The position numbers and the translations under genes are program-made. A stretch of DNA of 64,000 bases from Escherichia phage vB_EcoM_WL-3: sequence record MT968995.1; one strand, 5' to 3'. Position 1 is the first letter of the stretch. Every line of letters starts with the position of its first letter. The notes under the pieces are model-generated. The model was not told the origin of the DNA and made no database searches. It was given only the letters and a program-made list of their open reading frames with translations. Positions 21,278 through 63,891 of the stretch are shown here, piece after piece.

Positions 21278-21308
21278 TTTGTGTTCCTCATGTTATGTCA
21301 GTAAGATT

Positions 21309-21338
21309 ATTATAACACAATACGAGGGACTTGTAAAC
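21309..21338 (-). promoter_or_regulatory. T4 early-type promoter (GTTTAC-N18-TATAAT)
   Basis: Minus-strand GTTTACAAGTCCCTCGTATTGTGTTATAAT; the same cassette recurs upstream of alc. Confidence 0.6.
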
Positions 21339-23395
21339 TACATCTTGAACTTTTTAGACATTCCGTTGATGTTAACCAAAGAAGCTAAGATTTGAGAAAC
21401 TTCGTTTTCCTCTTCTTTTGATTCTTCTACAAGGAATTGATTAAACCCAGCCATTGGACGAACTTCACCAGTTTCCATCAGATGATCGCCATCATATACC
21501 GATTCTTCTAATTGTTCAGAAGGAGGAACGATTGTACCTTCGATTAAATACTTGTTATAAGCAGTTTCTTTCATCATGTACGTGCTCACTTTATTAATCT
21601 TCAGCAAAATTCCACGTGGTAAAATAACTTCAGCTTCTGACGTAAATCCTGATAAATGACCCGGAACGATAACTTTGATTCGCTCAGCTCCTTTAATTAC
21701 CATACCCACGCTAGTTTCAGCATCTTCATTCGCATAAGCAGAATGACTGCCCATATGCATCAAATCTTCTGCGTCAATTGAACCTTCTCCTTCACCAGAA
21801 AATACTGCACTGGAATCATCTAGAGCCATATAGTTTTTACCATACTCACCGAAGATATTTGGTTTAAGCGATGTGGATACGAAGTTCTTAAAATAGAACA
21901 TTTTATTTTCAATATTATGACGTAAAGTTTTAAAGGTAACTTCTTGGCCACGGTAAAGCGTAGTTCCTGGAGGAAGAACTGATCCTTTGGCAAAAGCAGA
22001 ATCCATCGTCTCGATGTGTTTAATAGCTCGTTCCATATATTCTTCACGAGTAGAATCCGGTTTACCTAAAAGGAACGAGTTCATTTCAACATATGAATCT
22101 GCGCAATAATCTTCAATTACATCAGACTCAGCCCGAGTTAATCCTTTTGGGGGTACTTCAGTACTTGCATATTCATACGCTTGAGAAGCAGACTCATTAA
22201 TCAATTTATAAATGCCATTCATGACAAATTGAATAATAGCTACCTTTTCATCTGGCGTGGCTTTAGAACCTTTAACTAAATCATTGACAATTTTCTTAAT
22301 AACATCAAAGCTATTAGAAATATTAATGTCAGCAAGATCGCTTAAAATTTTATCAGTTTTATAATCAAAAAATTCTTTATTCTTTAAATATTCTTGAGAA
22401 CCTTGATGTGTTATATCGCTCTGCAGTCTGATAGACGGATCACGTAAACGTGCATGGGCCAATGCAATATGATTTCGGAAGCTTTTTAGTTCATAATCAC
22501 TAGATTTAAAACGAGAAGCACTCCTCATACCACCGATAGCTCCTTTGCCGAAGTTTGAACCAATCTGAATAACGCCAGAGTTCATTGGTCCTTCTGCTTT
22601 ATATACCGGAACTTTAGATTCAAACTCTTGATATTTCTTAGCAGCGAAACTATCGCCCTGAAGTGAAGCATCGACAGTAGAGTATTGAGCTTGTGCTGCT
22701 AATCGACGACTAATTTTAGTTTTCTGAATAACAGCTTGATCCGTGCGCTTATCATTTTCTAAAGCAATAGAAGCGGCAACAGCAACAGCTTTAGGAACAG
22801 CATTACCTGTTTTAACGTCTACATAAACATCACCAACCTTTGATTCAACTTTTGTGAATAACTCAGTTGAAATAGGAGGTACACCTGGAATGTCTTCTAA
22901 ATTGGCATTTTTACGGTAAACCATAATATATGCATACTTTTTATCGTAATCCCAGATTTCCTTTAAAAGAACATATCGACCTGCTCCTTTAGTACGTACT
23001 AAACGGTCAGCAATAACTTGAATTTGTCGAGCTGCGCCATTTGTTTTACTCTTTAGTACGCGGAACAGGCATGCGTCAATTTTATACTGTTTCATTGTTT
23101 GAAGAGCAGTATCAAAAACCGCATTAATAACACCAATTGGATTTCCACCCAAGTTTTTAAGTTTAACTAATGATAGTTTCTCATTGACACCTATCATTAC
23201 GATATGCATCATTTTATCGCCTGGCTTAACGTTTTTATTTGTATCACCGCCAGAGGTGTATGTGCAAAATCTAAATCCAGGAAGCACGCTTTCTTCACCG
23301 GCTTGAATAGCAAAAATTTGAGGTATTTTATGCTTAGGATTTAAGTTAACAACCGGCGCCGAAGCGCCGTCAAATAATTCTGTAATAAGTTCCAT
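21338..23395 (-). CDS. Alt-family ADP-ribosyltransferase, paralog A
   Basis: 685-aa ORF with MELITELFD N-terminus and C-terminal ART motifs (YRGQ Arg, FVSTSL, EAEVILPRG); paralogous to the adjacent ORF; which copy is the T4 alt ortholog is not resolved. Confidence 0.85.
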   Translation of the reverse strand: MELITELFDGASAPVVNLNPKHKIPQIFAIQAGEESVLPGFRFCTYTSGGDTNKNVKPGDKMMHIVMIGVNEKLSLVKLKNLGGNPIGVINAVFDTALQTMKQYKIDACLFRVLKSKTNGAARQIQVIADRLVRTKGAGRYVLLKEIWDYDKKYAYIMVYRKNANLEDIPGVPPISTELFTKVESKVGDVYVDVKTGNAVPKAVAVAASIALENDKRTDQAVIQKTKISRRLAAQAQYSTVDASLQGDSFAAKKYQEFESKVPVYKAEGPMNSGVIQIGSNFGKGAIGGMRSASRFKSSDYELKSFRNHIALAHARLRDPSIRLQSDITHQGSQEYLKNKEFFDYKTDKILSDLADINISNSFDVIKKIVNDLVKGSKATPDEKVAIIQFVMNGIYKLINESASQAYEYASTEVPPKGLTRAESDVIEDYCADSYVEMNSFLLGKPDSTREEYMERAIKHIETMDSAFAKGSVLPPGTTLYRGQEVTFKTLRHNIENKMFYFKNFVSTSLKPNIFGEYGKNYMALDDSSAVFSGEGEGSIDAEDLMHMGSHSAYANEDAETSVGMVIKGAERIKVIVPGHLSGFTSEAEVILPRGILLKINKVSTYMMKETAYNKYLIEGTIVPPSEQLEESVYDGDHLMETGEVRPMAGFNQFLVEESKEEENEVSQILASLVNINGMSKKFKM

Positions 23396-23398
23396 GAT

Positions 23399-25495
23399 TT
23401 ATCCTTGAACGAACTTGTAAGGCATGTTTGTAATATCTATGCAAGACGCAATAATTCCGAGAGATGATTCTGCTTTCTGTTTAACATTTGATGAAACAAA
23501 TGATGCAAAGTCAACTCTGTCTTCTATTTCAATATCACCTGTCATTGCAACTACTTCACCAGTTTCCATTAAATGGTCTCCATCATAAATTACTGATTCG
23601 GTGAGTTCTTCTGTAGTCATAACTTCAGATTGAATGAGTTTTGTATTATTAGATGTTGTTCCGTCATTATTAGAAGCATCAGTTATTTTATTAACTTTGA
23701 CCATCAATCCGCGCGGTAGAATAACTTCAGCTTCTGTTGCTATTCCGAGACTTCCTGGATATACAACATTAACTTTATGAGCTCCATCAATTGCCCATCC
23801 TATTTGAACTTTAACGTATTCAGGATTTTCTTTATACGCTCTTATTTCGTTTGGATTAATAGTTATTCCTTCTTCATTTTTATCAACTGTCAATTCATTA
23901 CGAGCTTCTGGTTCTAAAAGACCAATACCAGCATGTGTAATTCCAAAACGTCCAAAAATGATAGGAGTTAAAGAAGTAGATACAAAATTTCTGAAATAGA
24001 ACACTTTATTTTTAACTAGTGCTTCGTATATAGGAGCAGTCATACTTTGAGCACGATAAACTGTAATGCCTTCTGGTATACGGTCACCATTTTCAAAAGC
24101 TGAATCTAAGTTATTTATAGCAGATTCAATTTCTTTTTCACTCATTACATCATATCGTTCTGGATTGTAACGACCCAAAAGAAGATTATTGATGTCAGTA
24201 TATCCTGAACCACAATACTCTCTAATGCCGCGCTTTTGTGATGGAGTATATTTAGAACCATCACGGGCAATAGTAATATCAATCATTGGACCTGCACCAA
24301 TTCCAGAAAAACTATAAATCATTCGTTTGAGGAATTTAGTTTTTGCTGCGTTCCAGGAATTTTTAGTTATTTCTTCCCAGACTTCATCTGGCTGTCCTTT
24401 ACGGGTTTTATTATGTTTATCAAGCCAAGTATCTTTATATTCTTCAAAGAATTTATTAACAGCTGCTGCGTATTTCTCTAAACATTTTATTGAAGTAGTT
24501 GGTTCATTTTTAATCGCATTAAGAATTACATCTTTAATTTTTTCAGAAACTTCATTAACCTCACTTTTTGAAAAGAATTTATAGTCATAGTGAAGTTCAT
24601 CTGCGGTTCCTTCGGCAATGATTTTTGCTGCCTTAGTTTTAGAAGCTAATGAATTAATTCCAAGCTTCATTTCTTCTGCTTCGGGAATTAAAGGAGCTGT
24701 AGCAGGTTTATTGAAATTAGCTGCAGTAGATTCATACTTCTGGAATAATTCGCTTTCAAATCTAGAAGATTCTAATGATTGACTTTGCGCAATTGCTCTA
24801 CGGGAAATTTTAACTTTAACAATAACAGCTTGGTCAGAACGTTTATCATTTTCTTGTGCAATAGATGCTGCAATTGCCTCATTTTTAGTTACTTGAGCTC
24901 CAGTATCTTTATTGATATAAACATCGCCGACTTTCGATTCAACTTTAGTAAAGAGCTCGGTACTAATTTCCGGAACTCCTGGAATGTCTTCTAGTGATAC
25001 ATTTTTGCGATGTATAAGAATATATGCATACTTTTTATCGTAATCCCAGAGTTCCTTAAGAAGGACGTATCTGCCACCTGAACGACTACGAATAAGTCTA
25101 TCAGCAATAACTTGAATTTGTCGAGCTTGACCAGCAGTTTTAGACTTAAGAATACGGAGCATACAGGCATCAATTTTATACTGACGCATCGTCTGCATTG
25201 CAACAGTAAAAACTGAATTGATATAATTAATTGGGCTTGGACCGAGACCTTTTAATTTAGCAATTGAACCTTTAGCAGTTAATGTAAAAGGAACAATATG
25301 CATCATTTTATCGCCCATTTTTAAATCGCGATTAGTATCACCTCCAGATGTATAGGTACATAAACGAAAGCCTGGTTGTTCAATTGCGTCATCGACATGA
25401 ACTGAAAAAATTTGTGGTATTTTCTTCTTTGGATTTAAGTTTGTAATCGGAAGAGTAGTATCTTCGTCAAATAATTCTGTAATGAGTTCCATCAT
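23399..25495 (-). CDS. alt: Alt-family ADP-ribosyltransferase, paralog B
   Basis: 698-aa ORF (697 aa from the second Met) with the same N-terminal and catalytic motifs (YRAQ, FVSTSL, EAEVILPRG); late promoter and SD immediately upstream; symbol assigned by position next to gene 30, which is uncertain. Confidence 0.85.
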   Translation of the reverse strand: MMELITELFDEDTTLPITNLNPKKKIPQIFSVHVDDAIEQPGFRLCTYTSGGDTNRDLKMGDKMMHIVPFTLTAKGSIAKLKGLGPSPINYINSVFTVAMQTMRQYKIDACMLRILKSKTAGQARQIQVIADRLIRSRSGGRYVLLKELWDYDKKYAYILIHRKNVSLEDIPGVPEISTELFTKVESKVGDVYINKDTGAQVTKNEAIAASIAQENDKRSDQAVIVKVKISRRAIAQSQSLESSRFESELFQKYESTAANFNKPATAPLIPEAEEMKLGINSLASKTKAAKIIAEGTADELHYDYKFFSKSEVNEVSEKIKDVILNAIKNEPTTSIKCLEKYAAAVNKFFEEYKDTWLDKHNKTRKGQPDEVWEEITKNSWNAAKTKFLKRMIYSFSGIGAGPMIDITIARDGSKYTPSQKRGIREYCGSGYTDINNLLLGRYNPERYDVMSEKEIESAINNLDSAFENGDRIPEGITVYRAQSMTAPIYEALVKNKVFYFRNFVSTSLTPIIFGRFGITHAGIGLLEPEARNELTVDKNEEGITINPNEIRAYKENPEYVKVQIGWAIDGAHKVNVVYPGSLGIATEAEVILPRGLMVKVNKITDASNNDGTTSNNTKLIQSEVMTTEELTESVIYDGDHLMETGEVVAMTGDIEIEDRVDFASFVSSNVKQKAESSLGIIASCIDITNMPYKFVQG

Positions 25496-37051: not shown

Positions 37052-37079
37052 AAAGTCCTCATGTTATGTCAGTAAGACT

Positions 37080-37109
37080 ACTATAACACAACACGAGGGA
37101 CTTGTAAAC
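37080..37109 (-). promoter_or_regulatory. T4 early-type promoter (GTTTAC-N18-TATAGT) for alc
   Basis: Minus-strand GTTTACAAGTCCCTCGTGTTGTGTTATAGT; about 50 bp near-identical to the cassette at 21278-21338. Confidence 0.6.
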
Positions 37110-38727: not shown

Positions 38728-39906
38728 TTAAAAGTATTTTTTAAAACTCATCATAACTTTATCATCAACATCATTATCAATCTGTGCAACAAGATAAGAT
38801 GACAGTTCTACTTCTTGTGGCGCTGATTGAACATTATCAGAATTAAGATATTCACGAATCCAAGGATATGGATGTTTAACCGGAGCATCGGTAATTGGGC
38901 ATGGAAGACCACACTGTTTCATACGAGATACAGTTAAGTAATCAATAAAGCTCCACATGCTATTTGTATTTAATCCAGGAACATCGCCATCTTTAAATAA
39001 ATGAACTGCCCAATCTTTTTCTTGGCGGTTAACTTCCATGAAAATATCAACTGCTTCTTGTTCACACTCTTGAGCAATTTTAACCCATTGATCGCCATCA
39101 GTACCAGATTGAAGTTGACGAATAATATATTGTGTACCTTTAAGATGAAGCTGCTCATCACGTGCAATAAATTTCATAATCTTCGCATTACCTTCCATGA
39201 TTTCCATGTTCTTATGGAAGTTGAAAGTACATGCAAAGGATACATAAAAACGAATAGCTTCCAGAGCATTGATAACGTGCAGACAGAGATAAAGCGACTT
39301 CATTAGCTCACGCTTCCAATATGTCTCATGCTCAATAGCATCTTCAATAACGTCTTCGTCTGCATTAATTTCTTTTTGGTATTCGATATCAGCTTTAGCG
39401 TTTTCCCAATAACGAGTTTTAATCAGAACATCATCATAATAACGTCCAATGGATTCAGCACGTTTCATAATAGCTTCATCTAATACAATTTCATCAAATA
39501 CCTTCGATGGATCAGTATAAAGATTTCGCATGATATGAGTATATGAACGACTGTGAATAGTTTCACTAAAAGTCCATGTAGCAACCCATGTATCAAGGCT
39601 TGGGTCTGAAATTAATGACATAAGTACAGCAGATGGCGCGCGACCCTGAATGCTATCTAAAAGTGATTGATACTTCAAGTTGTTAGTAAAAATATTTTGC
39701 TGATACTGAGGAAGCTTATTAAACTGTGCAGCATCCATCATCAAGTTTACTTCTTCAGGACGCCAGAAAAATGATAATTGCTTTTCGGTTAAATCTTCAA
39801 AAACTTTATGACGTTGAATATCATAACGCGCAATACCAAGACCTGAACCAAAAAACATAGGTTCTTTTAAAACGTCAACTGGATTTGTATTAAAAACTGT
39901 GCTCAT
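38728..39906 (-). CDS. nrdB: Ribonucleotide reductase small subunit (intron-less)
   Basis: Continuous 392-aa ORF with no interruption. Confidence 0.92.
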   Translation of the reverse strand: MSTVFNTNPVDVLKEPMFFGSGLGIARYDIQRHKVFEDLTEKQLSFFWRPEEVNLMMDAAQFNKLPQYQQNIFTNNLKYQSLLDSIQGRAPSAVLMSLISDPSLDTWVATWTFSETIHSRSYTHIMRNLYTDPSKVFDEIVLDEAIMKRAESIGRYYDDVLIKTRYWENAKADIEYQKEINADEDVIEDAIEHETYWKRELMKSLYLCLHVINALEAIRFYVSFACTFNFHKNMEIMEGNAKIMKFIARDEQLHLKGTQYIIRQLQSGTDGDQWVKIAQECEQEAVDIFMEVNRQEKDWAVHLFKDGDVPGLNTNSMWSFIDYLTVSRMKQCGLPCPITDAPVKHPYPWIREYLNSDNVQSAPQEVELSSYLVAQIDNDVDDKVMMSFKKYF

Positions 39907-42779: not shown

Positions 42780-43091
42780 TTACACCGCCATTTTTCCTTT
42801 AATAGGAGGGTGTGATTCGTAACCTTTAAGAACGAAATCTTTAGGCCTGAGTTTAAGAACATATTCCAATTGTTCTTTAGTAGAAAGATAGCGGAATTTA
42901 TAAGGCAATCCGCCTATTACCAGTTCACAAAGCTCTTTAGGTTCACGACGTAAAATTTCTTTACATTGTTCCACGTGGTTCATATAGATATGAGTATTAC
43001 CGCCAGAAAATATCAAATCTCCAGGAATAAGATTACACATCTTAGCTACAATATGAACCAACGCAGCATATGATGCAATATTAAATGGAAG
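42780..43091 (-). CDS. td: Thymidylate synthase, exon 2
   Basis: Encodes LPFNIASYA...KGKMAV; joined to exon 1 it gives a 286-aa TS; 3-prime splice site after the G at 43092. Confidence 0.92.
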   Translation of the reverse strand, partial: LPFNIASYAALVHIVAKMCNLIPGDLIFSGGNTHIYMNHVEQCKEILRREPKELCELVIGGLPYKFRYLSTKEQLEYVLKLRPKDFVLKGYESHPPIKGKMAV

Positions 43092-44107
43092 CATTATGTT
43101 CAGATAAGGTCGTTAATCTTATCCCGGAATTATATCCAGCTGCATGTCACCATACAGATCAGACTATATCTCCATCTTGATGAAGCAAGATGTCTATCGT
43201 TTCGAGTCACTTGACCCTACTCCCCAAAGGGATAGTCGTTAGGCATTTATGTAGAACCAATTCCATTTATCAGATTTTACACGATAAGTAACTAATCCAG
43301 ACGAAATTTTAAAATGTCTAGCTGCATCTGCTGCGCATTCAAAAATAATCCCGTCGCATGAAATCTTTTTAATATTACTAGGCTTTTTGCCTTTCATCTT
43401 TTCTGATATTTTAGATTTAGTTTTGTCCGAATGCTTATGATTAAAGAATGAATTATTTTCACCTGAACGATTTCTGCATTTACTACAAGTATAAGCAGAA
43501 GTTTGTATACGAACACCGCACTTACAAAATTTGTGTTTTTCTGGATTCCATCGTCCGTTTTTACTTCCGGGTTTACCGTAAAGAGCTTTCCGAGCATCAA
43601 GGCCAAGCTTAAGCATCTTAGCTTTAACAGTTTCAGAGCGTTTCTTAATAATTTCTTCTTTTAATGGATGTACAGAATATGTATCACCAAACGTTGCATC
43701 AGCAATATTATATCCATTAATTTTAGAATTAAGCTCTTTAATCCAAAAATTTTCTCGTTCAATAATCAAATCTTTCTCATATGGAATTTCTTCCAAAATA
43801 GAGCATTCAAATACATTACCGTGTTTGTTAAAAGACCTTTGAAGTTTTATAGAAGAATGGCATCCTTTTTCTAAGTCTTTAAAATGCCTCTTCCATCTCT
43901 TTTCAAAATCTTTAGCACTTCCTACATATACTTTATTGTTTAAAGTATTTTTAATCTGATAAATTCCACTTTTCATAAATACCTCTTTAAATATAGAAGT
44001 ATTTATTAAAGGGTAGTCCTACAATTTAGCACGGGATTGTCTACTAGAGAGGTTCCCCGTTTAGATAGATTACAAGTATAAGTCACCTTATACTCAGGCC
44101 TCAATTA
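43092..44107 (-). mobile_element. Group I self-splicing intron of td (1016 nt) carrying the I-TevI ORF
   Basis: Intron 5-prime sequence TAATTGAGGCCTGAGTATAAGGTGAC directly after exon 1 (in-frame TAA at the splice site); 3-prime end at ...ATAATG; total 1016 nt. Confidence 0.9.
43239..43976 (-). CDS. Homing endonuclease I-TevI (GIY-YIG)
   Basis: 245-aa ORF inside the td intron; N-terminal GIY-YIG domain (GIYQIKN...KVYVGSA) and C-terminal zinc-finger DNA-binding region. Confidence 0.93.
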   Translation of the reverse strand: MKSGIYQIKNTLNNKVYVGSAKDFEKRWKRHFKDLEKGCHSSIKLQRSFNKHGNVFECSILEEIPYEKDLIIERENFWIKELNSKINGYNIADATFGDTYSVHPLKEEIIKKRSETVKAKMLKLGLDARKALYGKPGSKNGRWNPEKHKFCKCGVRIQTSAYTCSKCRNRSGENNSFFNHKHSDKTKSKISEKMKGKKPSNIKKISCDGIIFECAADAARHFKISSGLVTYRVKSDKWNWFYINA

Positions 44108-44656
44108 ACCCAAGAACACGTCAACACTTCTTTGATACCACTGTAAATCCAAATATCCATTACGCACATTAAACTGATAGAACATATGACAAGGTGGTAA
44201 TGCCATATATTTAAGTTCAGCTGGATTCCACGCAGAAACAATTTGACGCCTATCATTCGGTAGTTTTTTAATACGATCAATAACTTCTACAATTTGGTCT
44301 ACACCGCCAAAATCACGCCATTGTTTTCCGTAAATTGGACCAAGTTCACCACTATGATATCCTAAATCTTTTGCTTGGTTTTCGTAATTTTCATCCCAGA
44401 CTGTTTTGCCTTGAATTAATGAATCGTGTTGAATTAATCGTAAATCATTGACATTTGTGCTTCCTGATAAAAACCAAAGGAGCTCAGCAATGCAAGCTTT
44501 CCAGGCGAGCTTCTTAGTCGTTACTGCAGGAAAACCTTTAGTTAAATCCCAGCGTAATTTAGTACCGAACAAAGCAATTGTTCCTGTGCCTGTTCGGTCA
44601 TCGGTTTCATAGCCATTTTCAAAAATGTCTTTAATTAAATCTTGGTATTGTTTCAT
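44108..44656 (-). CDS. td: Thymidylate synthase, exon 1
   Basis: 183 codons ending ...VDVFLG, with the active-site region LPPCHMFYQF. Confidence 0.92.
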
Positions 44657-47277: not shown

Positions 47278-47308
47278 AGTTTTGTGAAAAAATTTTTGAA
47301 ATAAAAAA

Positions 47309-47327
47309 GGGGACCTCTAGGGTCCCC
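47309..47327 (-). terminator. Intrinsic terminator downstream of gene 32
   Basis: GGGGACC-CTAGA-GGTCCCC hairpin followed on the minus strand by TTTTTTATTT. Confidence 0.75.
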
Positions 47328-47349
47328 AATTAATTAGTAATATAATCTA

Positions 47350-50623: not shown

Positions 50624-53600
50624 ATGGCCGAGATTAAAAGAAAGTTCAGAGCAGAAGACGGTCTGGACGCAGGTGGCGATAAAATAATCAACGTAGCTTT
50701 AGCTGATCGTACCGTAGGAACTGACGGTGTTAACGTTGATTACTTAATTCAAGAAAACACAGTTCAACAATATGATCCAACTCGTGGATATTTAAAAGAT
50801 TTTGTAATCATTTATAATAATCGTTTTTGGGCAGCAACGGATAATATTCCAAAACCTGCTGGAAGTTTTAATAGAATTCGTTGGAAAGCATTACGTACTG
50901 ATGCCGTATATACAACCGTATCATCTGGACCATATCAATTAAAATCCGGAGAAGCAATTTCAGTAGATACATCAGTTGGTAATGACATTGAGTTTAATTT
51001 ACCACCTTCTCCGCTTGATGGAGAAACCGTAATAATTCAAGATATTGGTGGAAAACCTGGTATAAATCAGGTTAAAATAAATTCTTCAAATCAGAGTATT
51101 GTTAATTTTAGAGGTGAACAAGTACGTTCAGTTCTAATGACTCATCCAAAGTCACAGATGATATTCATTTTTAATAATCGTTTGTGGCAAATGTATGCTG
51201 CTGATTATAGCAGAGAAGCTGCGATTGTTACTCCATCAACTGCATATCAAGCACAATCTAATGATTTTATCGTGCGTAGATTTACTTCCGCTGCGCCGAT
51301 TAATATTAAACTTCCGAGATTTGCTAATCATGGCGATATTATTAATTCGTGCGTAGATTTACTTCCGCTGCGCCGATTAATATTAAACTTCCGAGATTTG
51401 CTAATCATGGCGATATTATTAATTTCGTTGATTTAGATAAATTAAATCCACTTTATCATACAATTGTCACAACATATGATGAAACAACTTCAGTACAAGA
51501 AGTTGGAACTCATTCTATTGAAGGCCGTACATCAATTGACGGTTTCTTGATGTTTGATGATAATGAAAAATTATGGAGACTGTTTGACGGGGATAGTAAA
51601 GCACGTTTACGCATTATAACAACTAATTCTAATATTCGTCCAAATGAAGAAGTTATGGTATTTGGCGCGAATAACGGAACAGCCCAAACAATTGAACTTC
51701 AACTTCCAACCGATATTTCCATTGGTGATACTGTTAAAATTTCCATGAATTACATGAGAAAAGGACAAACAGTTAAAATCAAAGCTGCCGGTGAAGATAA
51801 AATTGCTTCTTCAGTTCAATTGCTGCAATTCCCAAAACGCTCAGAATATCCACCACCTGAAGCTGAATGGGTGACTGTCCAAGAATTAGTTTTCAATGGT
51901 GAAACTAATTATGTTCCGGTTTTACAACTTGCTTATATAGAAGATTCTGACGGAAAATACTGGGTTGTACAACAAAACGTTCCAACGGTTGAAAGAGTCG
52001 ATTCTTTAAATAATTCTACTAGAGCAAGATTAGGCGTAATAGCTTTAGCTACACAAGCTCAAGCTAACGTCGATTTAGAAAATTCTCCGCAAAAAGAATT
52101 AGCAATTACACCAGAAACATTAGCTAACCGTACTGCTACAGAAACTCGTAGAGGTATCGCAAGAATAGCAACTACTGCTCAAGTGAATCAGAACACCACA
52201 TTCTCTTTTGCTGATGACCTTATCATCACTCCTAAAAAGCTGAATGAAAGAACTGCTACAGAAACTCGTAGAGGTGTAGCTGAAATTGCTACGCAGCAGG
52301 AAACTAATACAGGTACTGATGATACTACAATCATCACTCCTAAAAAGCTTCAAGCTCGACAAGGTTCTGAATCATTATCTGGTATTGTAACCTTTGTATC
52401 TACTGCGGGAGCTACTCCAGCTTCTAGTCGCGAATTAAATGGTACAAATGTTTATAATAAAAACACTAATAATTTAGTTGTTTCGCCTAAAGCTTTGGAT
52501 CAGTATAAAGCTACTCCAACACAACAAGGTGCAGTAATTTTAGCAGTTGAAAGTGAAGTAATTGCTGGACAAAGCCAAGAAGGATGGGCAAATGCGGTTG
52601 TAACGCCAGAAACGTTACATAAAAAGACATCAACTGATGGAAGAATTGGTTTAATTGAGATTGCTACGCAAAGTGAAGTTAATACAGGAACTGATTATAC
52701 TCGCGCAGTCACTCCTAAAACTTTAAATGACCGTAAAGCAACTGAAAGTTTAACTGGTATAGCTGAAATTGCTACGCAAGTTGAATTCGACGCAGGCGTC
52801 GACGATACTCGTATCTCTACACCATTAAAAATTAAAACCAGATTTAATAGTACTGATCGTACTTCTGTTGTTGCTCTGTCTGGATTAGTTGAATCAGGAA
52901 CTCTCTGGGACCATTATACCCTTAATATTCTTGAAGCAAATGAGACACAACGTGGTACACTTCGTGTAGCTACACAAGTTGAAGCTGCTGCAGGAACATT
53001 GGATAATGTTCTAATAACTCCTAAAAAGCTTTTAGGTACTAAATCTACTGAAGCGCAGGAAGGTGTTATTAAAGTTGCAACTCGGTCTGAAACTGTAGCT
53101 GGAACGTCAGCAAATACTGCTGTATCTCCAAAAAATTTAAAATGGATTGTGCAGAGTGAACCTACTTGGGCAGCTACTACTGCGATAAGAGGTTTTGTTA
53201 AAACCTCATCCGGTTCAATTACATTCGTTGGTAATGATACAGCTGGTTCTACGCAGGACTTAGAACTATATGAGAAAAATAACTATGCAGTATCACCATA
53301 TGAATTAAACCGCGTATTAGCAAATTATTTGCCGTTAAAAGCAAAAGCTGTAGATAGTAATTTATTAGATGGTTTAGATTCACTCCAGTTCATTCGTAGG
53401 GATATTGCGCAGACGGTTAATGGTTCACTAACCTTAACACAACAAACGAATCTGAGTGCCCCTCTTGTATCATCTAGTACTGCTACGTTTGGTGGATCAG
53501 TTTCGGCAAATAGTACATTAACTATTTCTAATACTGGAACGGCAACTCGTCTTATTTTTGAAAAAGGGCCTCAAACTGGGACGAACCCAGCTCAAACGAT

Positions 53601-54573
53601 GACAGTCAGAGTGTGGGGAAATCAATTCAGCAGTGAATCGGACACAACACGTTCTACTGTATTTGAAGTTAGTGATGAAACGTCTAGTCACTTTTATTCT
53701 CAGCGCAATAAAGCTGGTAATATAACATTTAATATCAATGGTACAGTAACACCGATAAATGTGAATGCTTCAGGAACATTGAATGCGAATGGCGTTGCAA
53801 CATTCGGTAGTTCAGTTACTGCTAATGGCGAATTTATCAGTAAATCGTCGAATGCTTTTAGAGCAATAAATGGTGATTATGGATTCTTTATTCGTAATGA
53901 TGGTGCTAACACCTATTTTATGCTTACTGCATCTGGTGATCAGACCGGTGGATTTAATGGATTACGTCCTTTATCTATTAATAATGCATCTGGTCAAGTA
54001 ACGATTGGTGAAAGCTTAATCATTGCCAAAGGTGCTACTATAAGTTCAGGTGGTTTAACTGTTAACTCGAGAATTCGTTCTCAGGGTACTAAAACCTCTG
54101 ATTTATATACCCGTGCGCCAACATCTGATACTGTAGGATTCTGGTCAATCGATATTAATGATTCAGCCACTTATAACCAGTTCCCGGGTTATTTTAAAAT
54201 GGTTGAAAAAACTAATGAAGTGACTGGACTTCCATACTTAGAACGTGGCGAAGAAGTTAAATCTCCCGGTACATTGACTCAGTTTGGTAACACACTTGAT
54301 TCGCTTTACCAAGATTGGATTACTTATCCAACTACCCCAGAAGCGCGCACCACTCGCTGGACACGCACATGGCAGAAAACCAAAAACTCTTGGTCAAGTT
54401 TTGTTCAGGTATTTGATGGGGGTAACCCTCCTCAACCTTCGGATATAGGAGCGATCCCATCTGATAACGGAATAATAGGTAATCTTACTATTCGTGATTT
54501 CTTGCGAATTGGTAATGTTCGCATTATTCCTGACCCAGTGAATAAAACTGTTAAATTTGAGTGGATTGAATAA
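50624..54573 (+). pseudogene. 34: Long tail fiber proximal subunit gene 34, frameshifted by a 77-bp tandem duplication
   Basis: Two overlapping ORFs (50624..51436, 270 aa; 51349..54573, 1074 aa) that together recapitulate the ~1289-aa gp34; the reading frame breaks exactly at a perfect 77-bp direct repeat. Confidence 0.85.
51270..51423 (+). repeat. Perfect 77-bp tandem duplication (2 copies) inside gene 34
   Basis: 51270-51346 and 51347-51423 are identical (tcgtgcgtagatttacttccgctgcgccgattaatattaaacttccgagatttgctaatcatggcgatattattaat); 77 is not a multiple of 3. Confidence 0.95.
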
Positions 54574-56418: not shown

Positions 56419-59367
56419 ATGGCTACTTTAAAACAAATACAATTTAAAAGAAGCAAAACTGCAGGTCAACGTCCTGCTGCTTCAGTATTAGCCGAAGGTG
56501 AATTGGCTATAAACTTAAAAGATAAAACAATTTTCACAAAAGATGACTCAGGTAGTGTTATAGAATTAGGTTTAAAATATGGAGGAACTATAAATGGGTC
56601 TTTAGAGGTTACAGAAAATATAACTGGAACTTTAATTGGAAATTCTAGCACAGCTACTAAATTGCAAACACCTAGGAAAATTAATGGTATATCTTTTGAT
56701 GGGTCAAAGGACATTACCTTAACTCCATCTGACATAAATGTCAATAGCACAACATTTATAAAAAATAATGGCGAATTACCTACTGATGCTAATTTAGATA
56801 CGTATGGGCCCATTGAAGAATATCTTGGTGTTTGGTCGAAATCTACTTCAACAAATGCGCAACCAGCAAATAAATTCCCAGAAGAAAATGCCGTAGGTGT
56901 ACTAGAAGTGTTTGTGGCCGGCCAATTTGCTGGCACTCAGCGTTATACTGTAAGATCTGGTAACGTCTATATTCGTTCCTTATCTGCTAAATGGAATGGC
57001 GTCGATGGTCCATGGGGTGTGTGGCGTAATGTTCAAGCGTCAACTCGTCCACTTTCACAAACGATTGACCTTGATAGCTTGGGAGAATTAGAACATTGTG
57101 GCTTATGGCGAAACAGTTCAAGCGCAATCGCATCATTTGATCGCCATTATCCAGAAGAAGGATCAGCCGCACAAGGATTTTTAGAAATATTTGAAGGTGG
57201 TTTATACACGAGAACTCAGCGTTATACTACCCGCATGGGTATGGTTTATACTCGTTGTCTCGCTGCTGCATGGGATGCTAGTGCACCTAAGTGGGAGGAA
57301 TGGAAGCAGGTTGGTCATGGCACACCAGCGACTTTCTATGATGGAGATCTGAATGATTTTAAAACTCCCGGGTTATATAATATTTTAGGCACTGATGCCG
57401 TTATTAACTGTCCTACAGGTGAAGGTTTGCCGACTGTTATTGTTGGTTTGCTGGAAGTTAAACAGCGTGCTTCTGGCGGTGCTATTTTCCAACGTTTCAC
57501 TACCGCAGGAACGGGTGCAACTACTCGCGATCGTATTTTTGAGCGTGCATATACTGGTGGTGCGTGGGGTGCATGGAACGAAGTATATACATCTTATTCT
57601 CTGCCAATTACTTTGGGTATGGGTGGTATTAAAGCTCAATTAGCGGAGTTAGATTGGCAAACCTTTGATTTTGTCCCTGGTAGTATGTTTAGTGTTCCTT
57701 TGAACAAAATAAAGAATATGCCAGCAAATATGGATTGGGGCACGATTGATGGAAACCTGGTTATGTTTTCTGTCGGTCCTAGCGAACATACCGGAACGGG
57801 TCGAACTGTTCAAGTGTGGCGCGGTACTGTATCTCAGGCGAACTATCGTTATTTCGTTGTTCGTATCGCTGGTAATCCAGGAAGTAGGACTAATACTTGT
57901 CGTCGTGTTGTTCTTGAAGACGGATCACATACTTGGACTGCTCAACAAAACTTTAGGGGATTGCTGAATATCACTGCTGCTGTTAATCTTGGTGCTAATC
58001 AGAAAATTTCACTTGCTCCAGGAGCATATATTCAAGCCCCTGCTAGCGGTTCTGGTTCTAATACTTACGCAAATCAGAATACTACCATTGCGCCATTATA
58101 TCAGGCTATTGACGATTCAAATAAAAACCAGTTTGCGCCAATTGTTAAACAGAAAAACACTGTAACAAATATTACTATGGCTTCTGGTATGGATATTGCT
58201 AGTTCAGAATATCGTATCGTTGCTCAGGGTGATTTATCCGCTACTGGAACTACAGCCACTGAATTAGCTACATGGCGTTTCTTGCCGTCTGGCCGATTCA
58301 TGTCACAAAGCCGAGTTTATGCTGGCGCAGCATTCTTGAACACTGATGGTAACATTGCTGGTTCAATCTGGAAGAAATACAACGATGCAACCAATTTAGA
58401 TGCTGCCTTGAATACTCGCCTAGGTAAAGGCGGTGATACGATGACAGGTCGGTTAACAATCAATGCACCTAATGATTCTATTGTATTATCAACGACTGCT
58501 AGTAATTCTTTGCATATTCGTGGTGACATAGACGGGACTGGTAACTGGTATATTGGTAAGGGTGGTGCTGATAATTCGCTAGCATTTTATAGCTATGCTT
58601 CTCAGGCGGCAGTACATATCACAAACAGTGGTGAGATTGCGTTAAAACCGCAAAATACCGTAATGGTTAACGTTAACCGTGACCGTGTACACATTAACGG
58701 TTCTGGATGGATTGCTAGACAACCGGGTGATTGGGGCAACCAATGGCGAGTAGAAGCTCCATTATTCGTTGATCATGGTTATGTTTCACAGGATTGTTAT
58801 TATCCTATTCTTAAAGCAAGAAGCGTTATAACCAATCAAGGATATAGCACCGCTGTTGACTTTGGTATGCGTCGTATTCCATCACAGTGGGGGCAAGCAA
58901 TCATTCGTGTCGGATCCACGGAGGCTTCTCCTGATGCTGGACACCCACAAGCTGTGTTTGAATTCCATCATGATGGATTCTTTTATACACCAGGAAATGG
59001 TAGCTTTAGCGATGTGTATATTCGTTCTGACTCCCGTCTCAAGATTAATAAAGAAGAATTAGAATATGGAGCGGTCGAAAAAGTTTGCCGACTGAAAGTT
59101 TATATTTACGATAAAGTTAAGTCTATTAAAGACCGTAGTGTTATTAAACGTGAAGTTGGTATTATTGCTCAGGACCTTGAAAAGGAATTACCGGAAGCTG
59201 TATCTAAAGTTGAAGTTGATGGATCTGATGTTCTGACAATTTCTAACTCTGCTGTGAATGCTCTTTTAATTAAGGCTATTCAGGAAATGAGTGAAGAAAT
59301 TAAAGAATTGAAAACGCCTTTCTTCACTAAAATTGCTCGCAAAATTAGTAATTATTTTAAATTCTAA
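56419..59367 (+). CDS. 37: Long tail fiber distal subunit gp37 (T2-type, with C-terminal chaperone-like domain)
   Basis: 982-aa ORF; the C-terminal ~120 aa ([20 protein letters not shown]...) resemble an intramolecular-chaperone/autocleavage domain. Confidence 0.9.
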
Positions 59368-59399: not shown

Positions 59400-60200
59400 A
59401 TGGCAGTAGTTGGTGTTCCCGGTTGGATTGGAAGTTCATCTGTAAATGAAACAGGACAACGATGGATGAGTCAAGCGGCTGGTCAATTAAGATTGGGTGT
59501 TCCTTGCTGGATGAGCCAATTCGCCGGACGCTCAAGAGAGATTATTCATACCGTAACAGCAAACCATAACTTTAATGGTCAATGGTTCCGCGACCGTTGC
59601 TTTGAAGCTGGCGGTGCACCCATTGTATTCAATATTGTTGGTGATATCGTTTCTTATTCTAAAGATGTGCCACTTTTCTTTATGTATGGGGATACGCCTA
59701 ATGAATATGTTGTTCTTAATATTCATGGCGGTGTTCATATGTGGGGTCGTGGTGGTAATGGTGGATACACTCACTCAGGAGGCGACGGTAACGGTACACA
59801 AGGCGGTCATGTTATTCAAAATGATATCGGTGGACGGCTTCGTATTTGGAACTACGGTGTTATAGCTGCTGGTGGTGGTGGTGGTGGCGGTATTGCATAT
59901 CGTCCACACTCAGGGGCAAACTGGCAAGATATCGGTGGCGGCGGCGGTCGACCTTTCGGTGGGGCTGGCGGTGGCGGTTATTCCGGTGGTGCTGCTTCGT
60001 ATGAAGGTCCGGGTGGTGGTTATGACTATGGTAACGCACACTCCGGCGCTGGTGGTAATGCTGGTGCTGCTGGTCAGAATGCATGGTCTGACGGCGGTAA
60101 AGTTCTTAAAGTTGGTGTTGGTGGTGCGTCTGGTCATGCAGTGTTTGGGTCTTCTCCAACTTGGGGTGTTGTTGGAACAATTTACGGACCAAGAGTATAA
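59400..60200 (+). CDS. 38: Receptor-recognising adhesin gp38 (T2-type, glycine-island containing)
   Basis: ORF 59388..60200 begins at TTG; the ATG at 59400 gives 266 aa; conserved N-terminus plus several poly-Gly islands. Confidence 0.85.
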
Positions 60201-63686: not shown

Positions 63687-63716
63687 CGTTTTGTGAAAAA
63701 TTTTTGAAATAAAAAA

Positions 63717-63736
63717 GGGAGAGCCTCGGCTCTCCC
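63717..63736 (-). terminator. Intrinsic terminator (8-bp GC stem plus U-run) downstream of the small hydrophobic ORF and gene 52
   Basis: gggagagc-ctcg-gctctccc followed on the minus strand by TTTTTTATTT. Confidence 0.7.
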
Positions 63737-63741
63737 TAAAA

Positions 63742-63891
63742 TTACTGCATGACTGTGATAACTGTCATGATAACACGTTGAATTCCGAACGCAAGAAGAC
63801 CTCCTGCTACGGCTGGAACAACGCCTAAACCCGCCAGTAAAATGCTACCAGATACTAATGCAGCGCTTGTAATACCAATGAATGGACTCAT
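63742..63891 (-). CDS. Small hydrophobic protein (49 aa, putative membrane peptide)
   Basis: Hand-translated ORF below the track cutoff: MSPFIGITSAALVSGSILLAGLGVVPAVAGGLLAFGIQRVIMTVITVMQ; its ATG overlaps the gene 52 TGA (ATGA). Confidence 0.5.
   Translation of the reverse strand: MSPFIGITSAALVSGSILLAGLGVVPAVAGGLLAFGIQRVIMTVITVMQ

Follow-up and report, generated by a model that had tools for sequence, protein, structure and literature searches.

A perfect 77-bp tandem duplication in gene 34 of the Escherichia phage vB_EcoM_WL-3 record very likely stems from an untrimmed assembler overlap

Introduction

T4-type phages have circularly permuted genomes. The assembler SPAdes works by default with k values of 21, 33, 55 and 77, to which 99 and 127 are added for long reads, and with reads of roughly 150 nt the final k is 77. 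Duplications that arise biologically are known from this phage group as well. The classical T4 duplications arise between short direct repeats and were isolated by selection or as infrequent mutants, a preprint on T4 toxIN evolution is said to describe duplications in T4-type phages, and tandem duplications in tail-fibre genes have reportedly been found in Enterococcus phage EfV12-phi1. Mutations that confer fibre independence on T4-type phages map to gene 9.

Papers on permuted phages have described identical genome ends of exactly 77 bp and attributed these to SPAdes. In a mitochondrial contig, too, the first 77 bp were the same as the last 77 bp (PMC8767329). An end repeat of 127 bp in one phage was recognized as an artefact of k-mer length and trimmed by hand (PMC12007190), the same was done with a 127-bp end repeat in a second phage (PMC7372960), and from a 127-bp k-mer assembly of a circularly permuted genome the direct repeats at each end were likewise trimmed (PMC6853846). 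As for the long tail fibre itself, the N-terminal globular domain of its proximal subunit, gp34, binds the baseplate protein gp9, and infectivity needs at least three long fibres (PMC3004832).

Here we analyze a repeat in gene 34 within a stretch of 64,000 nucleotides from the record of Escherichia phage vB_EcoM_WL-3 (MT968995.1), which as a whole is called the window below. By nucleotide identity and gene order the window belongs to Tequatrovirus, and the closest genomes are about 95-96% identical to it over 24 kb, with a best local identity of 99.2%. We infer with high confidence, although short of a demonstration, that the 77-bp duplication seen in this gene is an artefact of assembly or curation and that the phage DNA itself does not contain it.

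Results

A perfect two-copy repeat shifts the frame of gene 34

Direct string comparison of positions 51270-51346 with positions 51347-51423 gave 77 identities in 77 positions, with the two copies arranged head to tail. Tandem Repeats Finder described the same repeat with a period of 77, 2.0 copies, 100% matches, 0 indels and a score of 310. The start-to-start spacing of the copies is also 77, there are exactly two of them, and they abut directly. Identity continues one base past the end of the copy (a T at 51424), so the repeat boundaries can be placed only to within 1 nt. A perfect repeat of 77 nt cannot occur by chance within 64 kb, and no other long direct repeat in the window is exact, the nine other repeat families having identities of 72-94%. 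The features of the locus are collected in Table 1. Tandem Repeats Finder additionally gave a 39-nt quasi-repeat (65% matches) at 51278-51399 within the 77-bp unit. The wild-type sequence at this place encodes two loosely alike 13-residue segments (RRFTSAAPINIKLP and RFANHGDIINFVD), and an ancient internal repeat in the N-terminal domain of gp34 may be their origin.

Table 1. Features of the gene 34 locus in the window (a slash marks the junction between copies)
Feature	Coordinates	Strand	Description
Gene 34, long-tail-fibre proximal subunit	50624..54573	+	Single 1290-aa gene after removal of one 77-bp copy
ORF1	50624..51436	+	270 aa; native gp34 residues 1-241 followed by 29 out-of-frame residues
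ORF2	51349..54573	+	1074 aa; equivalent to gp34 residues 217-1289; GTG start
Copy 1 of 77-bp unit	51270..51346	+	Encodes gp34 residues about 216-241; relatives have a single copy at the same gene position
Copy 2 of 77-bp unit	51347..51423	+	Redundant copy; removing either copy gives the same result
New junction	51346..51347	.	Reads …GGCGATATTATTAAT / TCGTGCGTAGATTTAC…; position ambiguous by 1 nt
Copy-end/copy-start junction, longer form			…ATTATTAAT / TCGTGCGTAG…

As 77 is not divisible by 3, the repeat shifts the reading frame of gene 34, which as written falls into ORF1 and ORF2, the frame of the latter being closed upstream by a TAA at 51343. Deletion of one 77-bp copy yields a single ORF of 1290 aa. 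The first-pass annotation of this DNA had reported the perfect duplication, the frameshift into ORFs of 270 aa and 1074 aa (the second with only a GTG as start) and the recovery of a gp34 of some 1290 codons when one copy is taken out, and all of this was borne out. The restored ORF is collinear with chain M of PDB entry 9x3r, the solved full-length long-tail-fibre proximal subunit. Specifically, residues 1-241 of ORF1 align with residues 1-241 of this chain and residues 1-1074 of ORF2 with its residues 217-1289, and the two alignments overlap by exactly the 25 duplicated residues. ORF2 carries the Pfam domains Gp34_trimer and Gp34_2nd (PF21446, PF21560), and the order of the genes, compared with that of AV121, is rnh, 34, 35, 36, 37, 38, t. 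Judged by this full-length collinear similarity, the C-terminal Pfam domains and the gene order, the interrupted gene is gene 34, which encodes gp34. With one copy removed the protein has 1290 aa, relative to 1289 aa in T4 and in all ten related loci, and the extra residue shows up in the alignments as one gap of 3 nt. The exact product of ORF1 has no record in the gene-position collection, and exact-product look-ups there likewise returned no match for an ATG-started ORF2 or for gp37 (56419-59367).

The relatives and independent assemblies examined carry a single copy

We compared the repeat region with phage and metagenomic sequence. A 901-nt query across the repeat matched 499 phage records, and the best 40 of these 499 all span 824 nt (901 minus 77), aligning in two pieces. 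A 60-mer centred on the junction gave no contiguous match by megablast against 50,697 phage records, its halves mapping to opposite ends of a single unit. An exact search with a junction 31-mer found it absent from IMG/VR, from JGI metagenomes and from GTDB genomes (one genome per GTDB species), and as a positive control the 31-mer across the wild-type boundary was present in two IMG/VR contigs. Ten contigs that encode a 100% identical gp35 all have an uninterrupted gene 34 for a gp34 of 1289 aa, in which the unit occurs exactly once and at the corresponding position. Their gene 34 is 94.4-98.5% identical to that of the window, and none of these contigs represents the same phage. Over the full length of gene 34, nucleotide identity to 11 related loci (L002, L004-L013) is 94.2-98.5%, and a partial locus (L003) has an identity of 97.1%. 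The second copy is absent from the relatives and the independent assemblies examined. A comparison with gene 34 of the closest T-even relative had been proposed in the first-pass annotation, and in all relatives examined the gene has a single 77-bp copy.

The partial locus comes from Shigella phage sb3 (PQ666541.1), in which gene 34 is annotated as two CDS (L003 1225-1677 and 1738-3824) that are split near codon 150. This gene 34 contains one copy of the 77-mer and no duplication, and its break is probably a small indel error in the record. Thus sb3 resembles the window in that a record labelled as a complete genome has gene 34 as two CDS, but it differs in the position of the break, near codon 150, and in lacking a duplication.

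When the 95 annotated proteins of AV121 were compared with the window by tblastn, about 90 were matched, and a switch of frame was seen in gene 34 only. The other cases flagged by this comparison are ordinary, namely cross-hits between gp23 and gp24 and between two alt paralogues, missing homing endonucleases, a low-complexity tail and a diverged gp38. Since no gene but gene 34 changes frame among the roughly 90 that could be compared, the assembly is not error-prone in general, and we rejected a generally error-ridden assembly as an explanation.

An untrimmed end overlap in a related record

We also compared the first with the last 400 bases in the records of eight relatives. Seven of the eight were clean and one was positive. 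In the latter, Escherichia phage ZCEC14 (OP168898.1), the first 127 bases are identical to the last 127 (L016 1-127, L017 274-400). This end identity is an untrimmed assembler overlap with k=127, which makes the ZCEC14 record 127 bp too long. The artefact therefore does reach public records of the Tequatrovirus clade, and rotation of the ZCEC14 record would give the same picture as that seen in the window.

Other features of the window

Several further observations were made outside gene 34. A 54-nt direct repeat with 94% identity (21285-21338 and 37056-37109) occupies two intergenic spots in the minus-strand early region. On the minus strand it contains GTTTAC, followed after about 17 nt by TATAAT and further on by GAGGA as a ribosome-binding site, and by these motifs the repeat resembles a T4-type early promoter with its leader, present twice. 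Two tandem paralogues resembling alt, the RNA polymerase ADP-ribosyltransferase, are found at 21347-23395 and 23402-25492. They share about 41% protein identity and are joined by several nucleotide repeats about 2094 nt apart (families D1, D4, D5 and D10). Similar AT-rich stretches at 47288-47336 and 63696-63744 each precede a GC-rich hairpin (GGGGACC…GGGTCCCC and GGGAGAGCC…GGCTCTCCC). Both hairpins look like intrinsic terminators with a common conserved upstream context.

Relative to AV121, the window also differs in its mobile elements (38731-39906, 42783-44656 and around 10900 and 12430). For two homing endonucleases and one 230-aa ORF of AV121 no counterpart was found in the window, save for a weak distant hit to the ORF. 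The halves of nrdB are nearly contiguous and in the same frame, which suggests that nrdB has no intron here, and td keeps an intervening I-TevI-like ORF (43242-43976). Finally, in regard to the gp38 adhesin (59400-60200), the match to AV121 is confined to the first 145 residues, with 83% identity. The C-terminal half is a different glycine-rich variant, which is a likely determinant of host range.

Discussion

The repeat in gene 34 consists of two abutting copies that are 100% identical, and relatives lack the second copy. Its length equals the largest default k of SPAdes. That the genome would assemble as a circle follows from its membership in Tequatrovirus together with what is generally known of permutation in T4-type phages. 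From a circularly permuted genome a de Bruijn graph assembler closes a cycle and puts out a linear contig whose first k bases equal its last k bases. In the present case the contig would have been opened by accident inside gene 34, starting at about 51347 and ending at about 51346, such that copy 1 would correspond to the terminal k-mer, or final 77 nt, of the original contig and copy 2 to its first 77 nt. The junction at 51346/51347 would then be the point where the contig ends were joined. If the overlap was left untrimmed when these ends were brought together, be it by rotation to a conventional start, by circular wrapping or by the pasting of contigs adjacent in the graph, the join would read X(77)X(77) and so present the unit twice in a row, perfectly repeated, with a period of 77. 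We infer that k=77 was the setting behind this record and that the untrimmed overlap survived a later rotation or wrapping. Counting against this reading are that the sole positive among the eight relatives has an overlap of 127 bp and not 77, and that the length of a genuine duplication might happen to be 77 bp. The first-pass annotation had listed an artefact beside a recent slippage or recombination event and an unstable genotype kept as a revertible subpopulation. The artefact is by far the best of these explanations, and the other two, on which that annotation had put weight, are not supported. The decisive clue, which was missing from it, is that 77 is the largest default k of SPAdes.

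Other technical errors would fit the same absence of the second copy from relatives, with the length of 77 bp arrived at by chance. These include a polishing or consensus error, an overlap left by a long-read assembler and a chimeric read. However, long-read overlaps extend over kilobases and are imperfect, as in overlaps of 26.6-26.7 kb with 99.6-99.8% identity (PMC8767329). Polishing errors are typically indels of 1-2 nt that would touch other genes, and no other compared gene is affected. The exact k-mer length, moreover, points specifically to an end overlap from a de Bruijn graph, so that an artefact of a different kind is highly improbable. A further explanation holds that the duplication is real and that gp34 is made nonetheless, by a -1 frameshift within 51346-51433, by a 77-nt bypass in the style of gene 60 or as two fragments that assemble. 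Both frames are open over 51346-51433, where a -1 shift would produce gp34 with 26 extra residues, and for a bypass the perfect tandem repeat places, 77 nt downstream of every codon, an identical codon on which to 'land'. The region also folds somewhat better than shuffled sequence, although this z value of -2.5 is uninformative because a duplicated sequence with internal complementarity inflates folding. Against -1 programmed frameshifting, which we rejected, there is no slippery heptamer of the form X XXY YYZ in the ORF1 frame over 51346-51433, and this interval has no homopolymer run of 4 or more. A bypass of the gene 60 type was rejected given that copy 1 has no stop after a possible take-off codon, the ORF1 frame being open to 51434, and that a search of Rfam at E<=1 was negative. 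Re-initiation, or a split protein, was rejected given that no Shine-Dalgarno sequence lies upstream of the GTG at 51349 and that the break interrupts the N-terminal globular domain of gp34. The arrangement is conserved in no relative examined, which leaves recoding without evolutionary support. Overall, the locus has no sequence features that would be predicted to rescue expression of gp34, and its synthesis from a genuinely duplicated gene is hardly credible.

There is also the possibility of a genuine spontaneous tandem duplication, formed by slippage or unequal recombination and present in the majority or in a subpopulation, that knocks out gp34 and readily reverts by recombination. That the copies show zero divergence agrees with an event of very recent date, T4-type phages are active in recombination and capable of forming duplications, and the 39-nt quasi-repeat inside the unit could favour misalignment. 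Deposited records do hold broken copies of gene 34, as in phage sb3, where the cause is probably technical too. However, the length of the repeat is exactly that of an assembler default, and few of the possible lengths would give such a match. The microhomology at the junction is a single nucleotide (T), and a 4-nt TCGT that stands at the start of the unit and again 78 nt later was left unused. Given this spacing, slippage there would predict an in-frame duplication of 78 bp and not one of 77 bp. In a phage with this genotype the domain that binds the baseplate would no longer be fused to the shaft, and no functional long fibres would be formed. With infectivity dependent on three or more long fibres, a lytic stock under propagation should not have a consensus genotype without gp34 unless this is complemented, and such a genotype has no evident advantage. 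Gene 9 lies outside the window. The junction, moreover, occurs in no relative and in no metagenomic contig searched. We thus consider a real duplication unlikely, and the fibre-less, poorly adsorbing phage that the first-pass annotation had expected finds no support, given the match in length to the SPAdes k, a junction found in none of the sequences searched and a genotype that should not propagate. That the duplication is physically present and acts as a high-frequency, perfectly revertible 77-bp switch that turns production of the long tail fibre off is very unlikely. Were it true, the genotype would have to be kept up by complementation at high multiplicity or infection without long fibres would have to be tolerated, and the adsorption apparatus would possess an ON/OFF switch driven by recombination.

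Returning to the untrimmed k=77 overlap as the favoured explanation, the phage very probably makes a normal long tail fibre from one copy of the unit and an intact gp34 of 1290 aa, and there is very probably no consequence for its biology, since it should have an ordinary gp34. The consequences are for the record, in which the largest structural gene of a T4-type phage is mis-annotated as two fragments and the genome is inflated by 77 bp. Left uncorrected, this could mislead analyses of host range, of receptor-binding proteins or of pseudogenes. In practice, 77 bp should be dropped and a single gene 34 annotated. Errors of this class are easily screened for, since they leave an exact overlap between the ends of a record or, inside it, a tandem repeat with two copies of 55, 77, 99 or 127 bp.

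Among known systems, the locus shares with the bypassed T4 gene 60 and with -1 frameshifting an interruption of a T4-type gene by a length that is not a multiple of 3, where a skip or a slip restores the product. In contrast to these systems, it has no take-off stop, slippery heptamer or conserved structure, and the arrangement is not conserved in relatives. With T4 duplications of the rII type and with slipped-strand mispairing it has in common a head-to-tail arrangement that shifts the frame and that recombination between the copies could in principle revert. It departs from the classical T4 duplications in its microhomology of 1 nt, in the 4-nt repeat that was passed over, in its location in an essential gene and in a length that equals an assembler parameter. 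Relative to the k-mer end overlaps left by SPAdes there is one difference, in that the copies are adjacent and internal instead of terminal, which would call for one further joining step. The remaining traits are those of such overlaps, namely identical copies, a length equal to a default k, a permuted genome, a position that ignores gene structure and absence from relatives.
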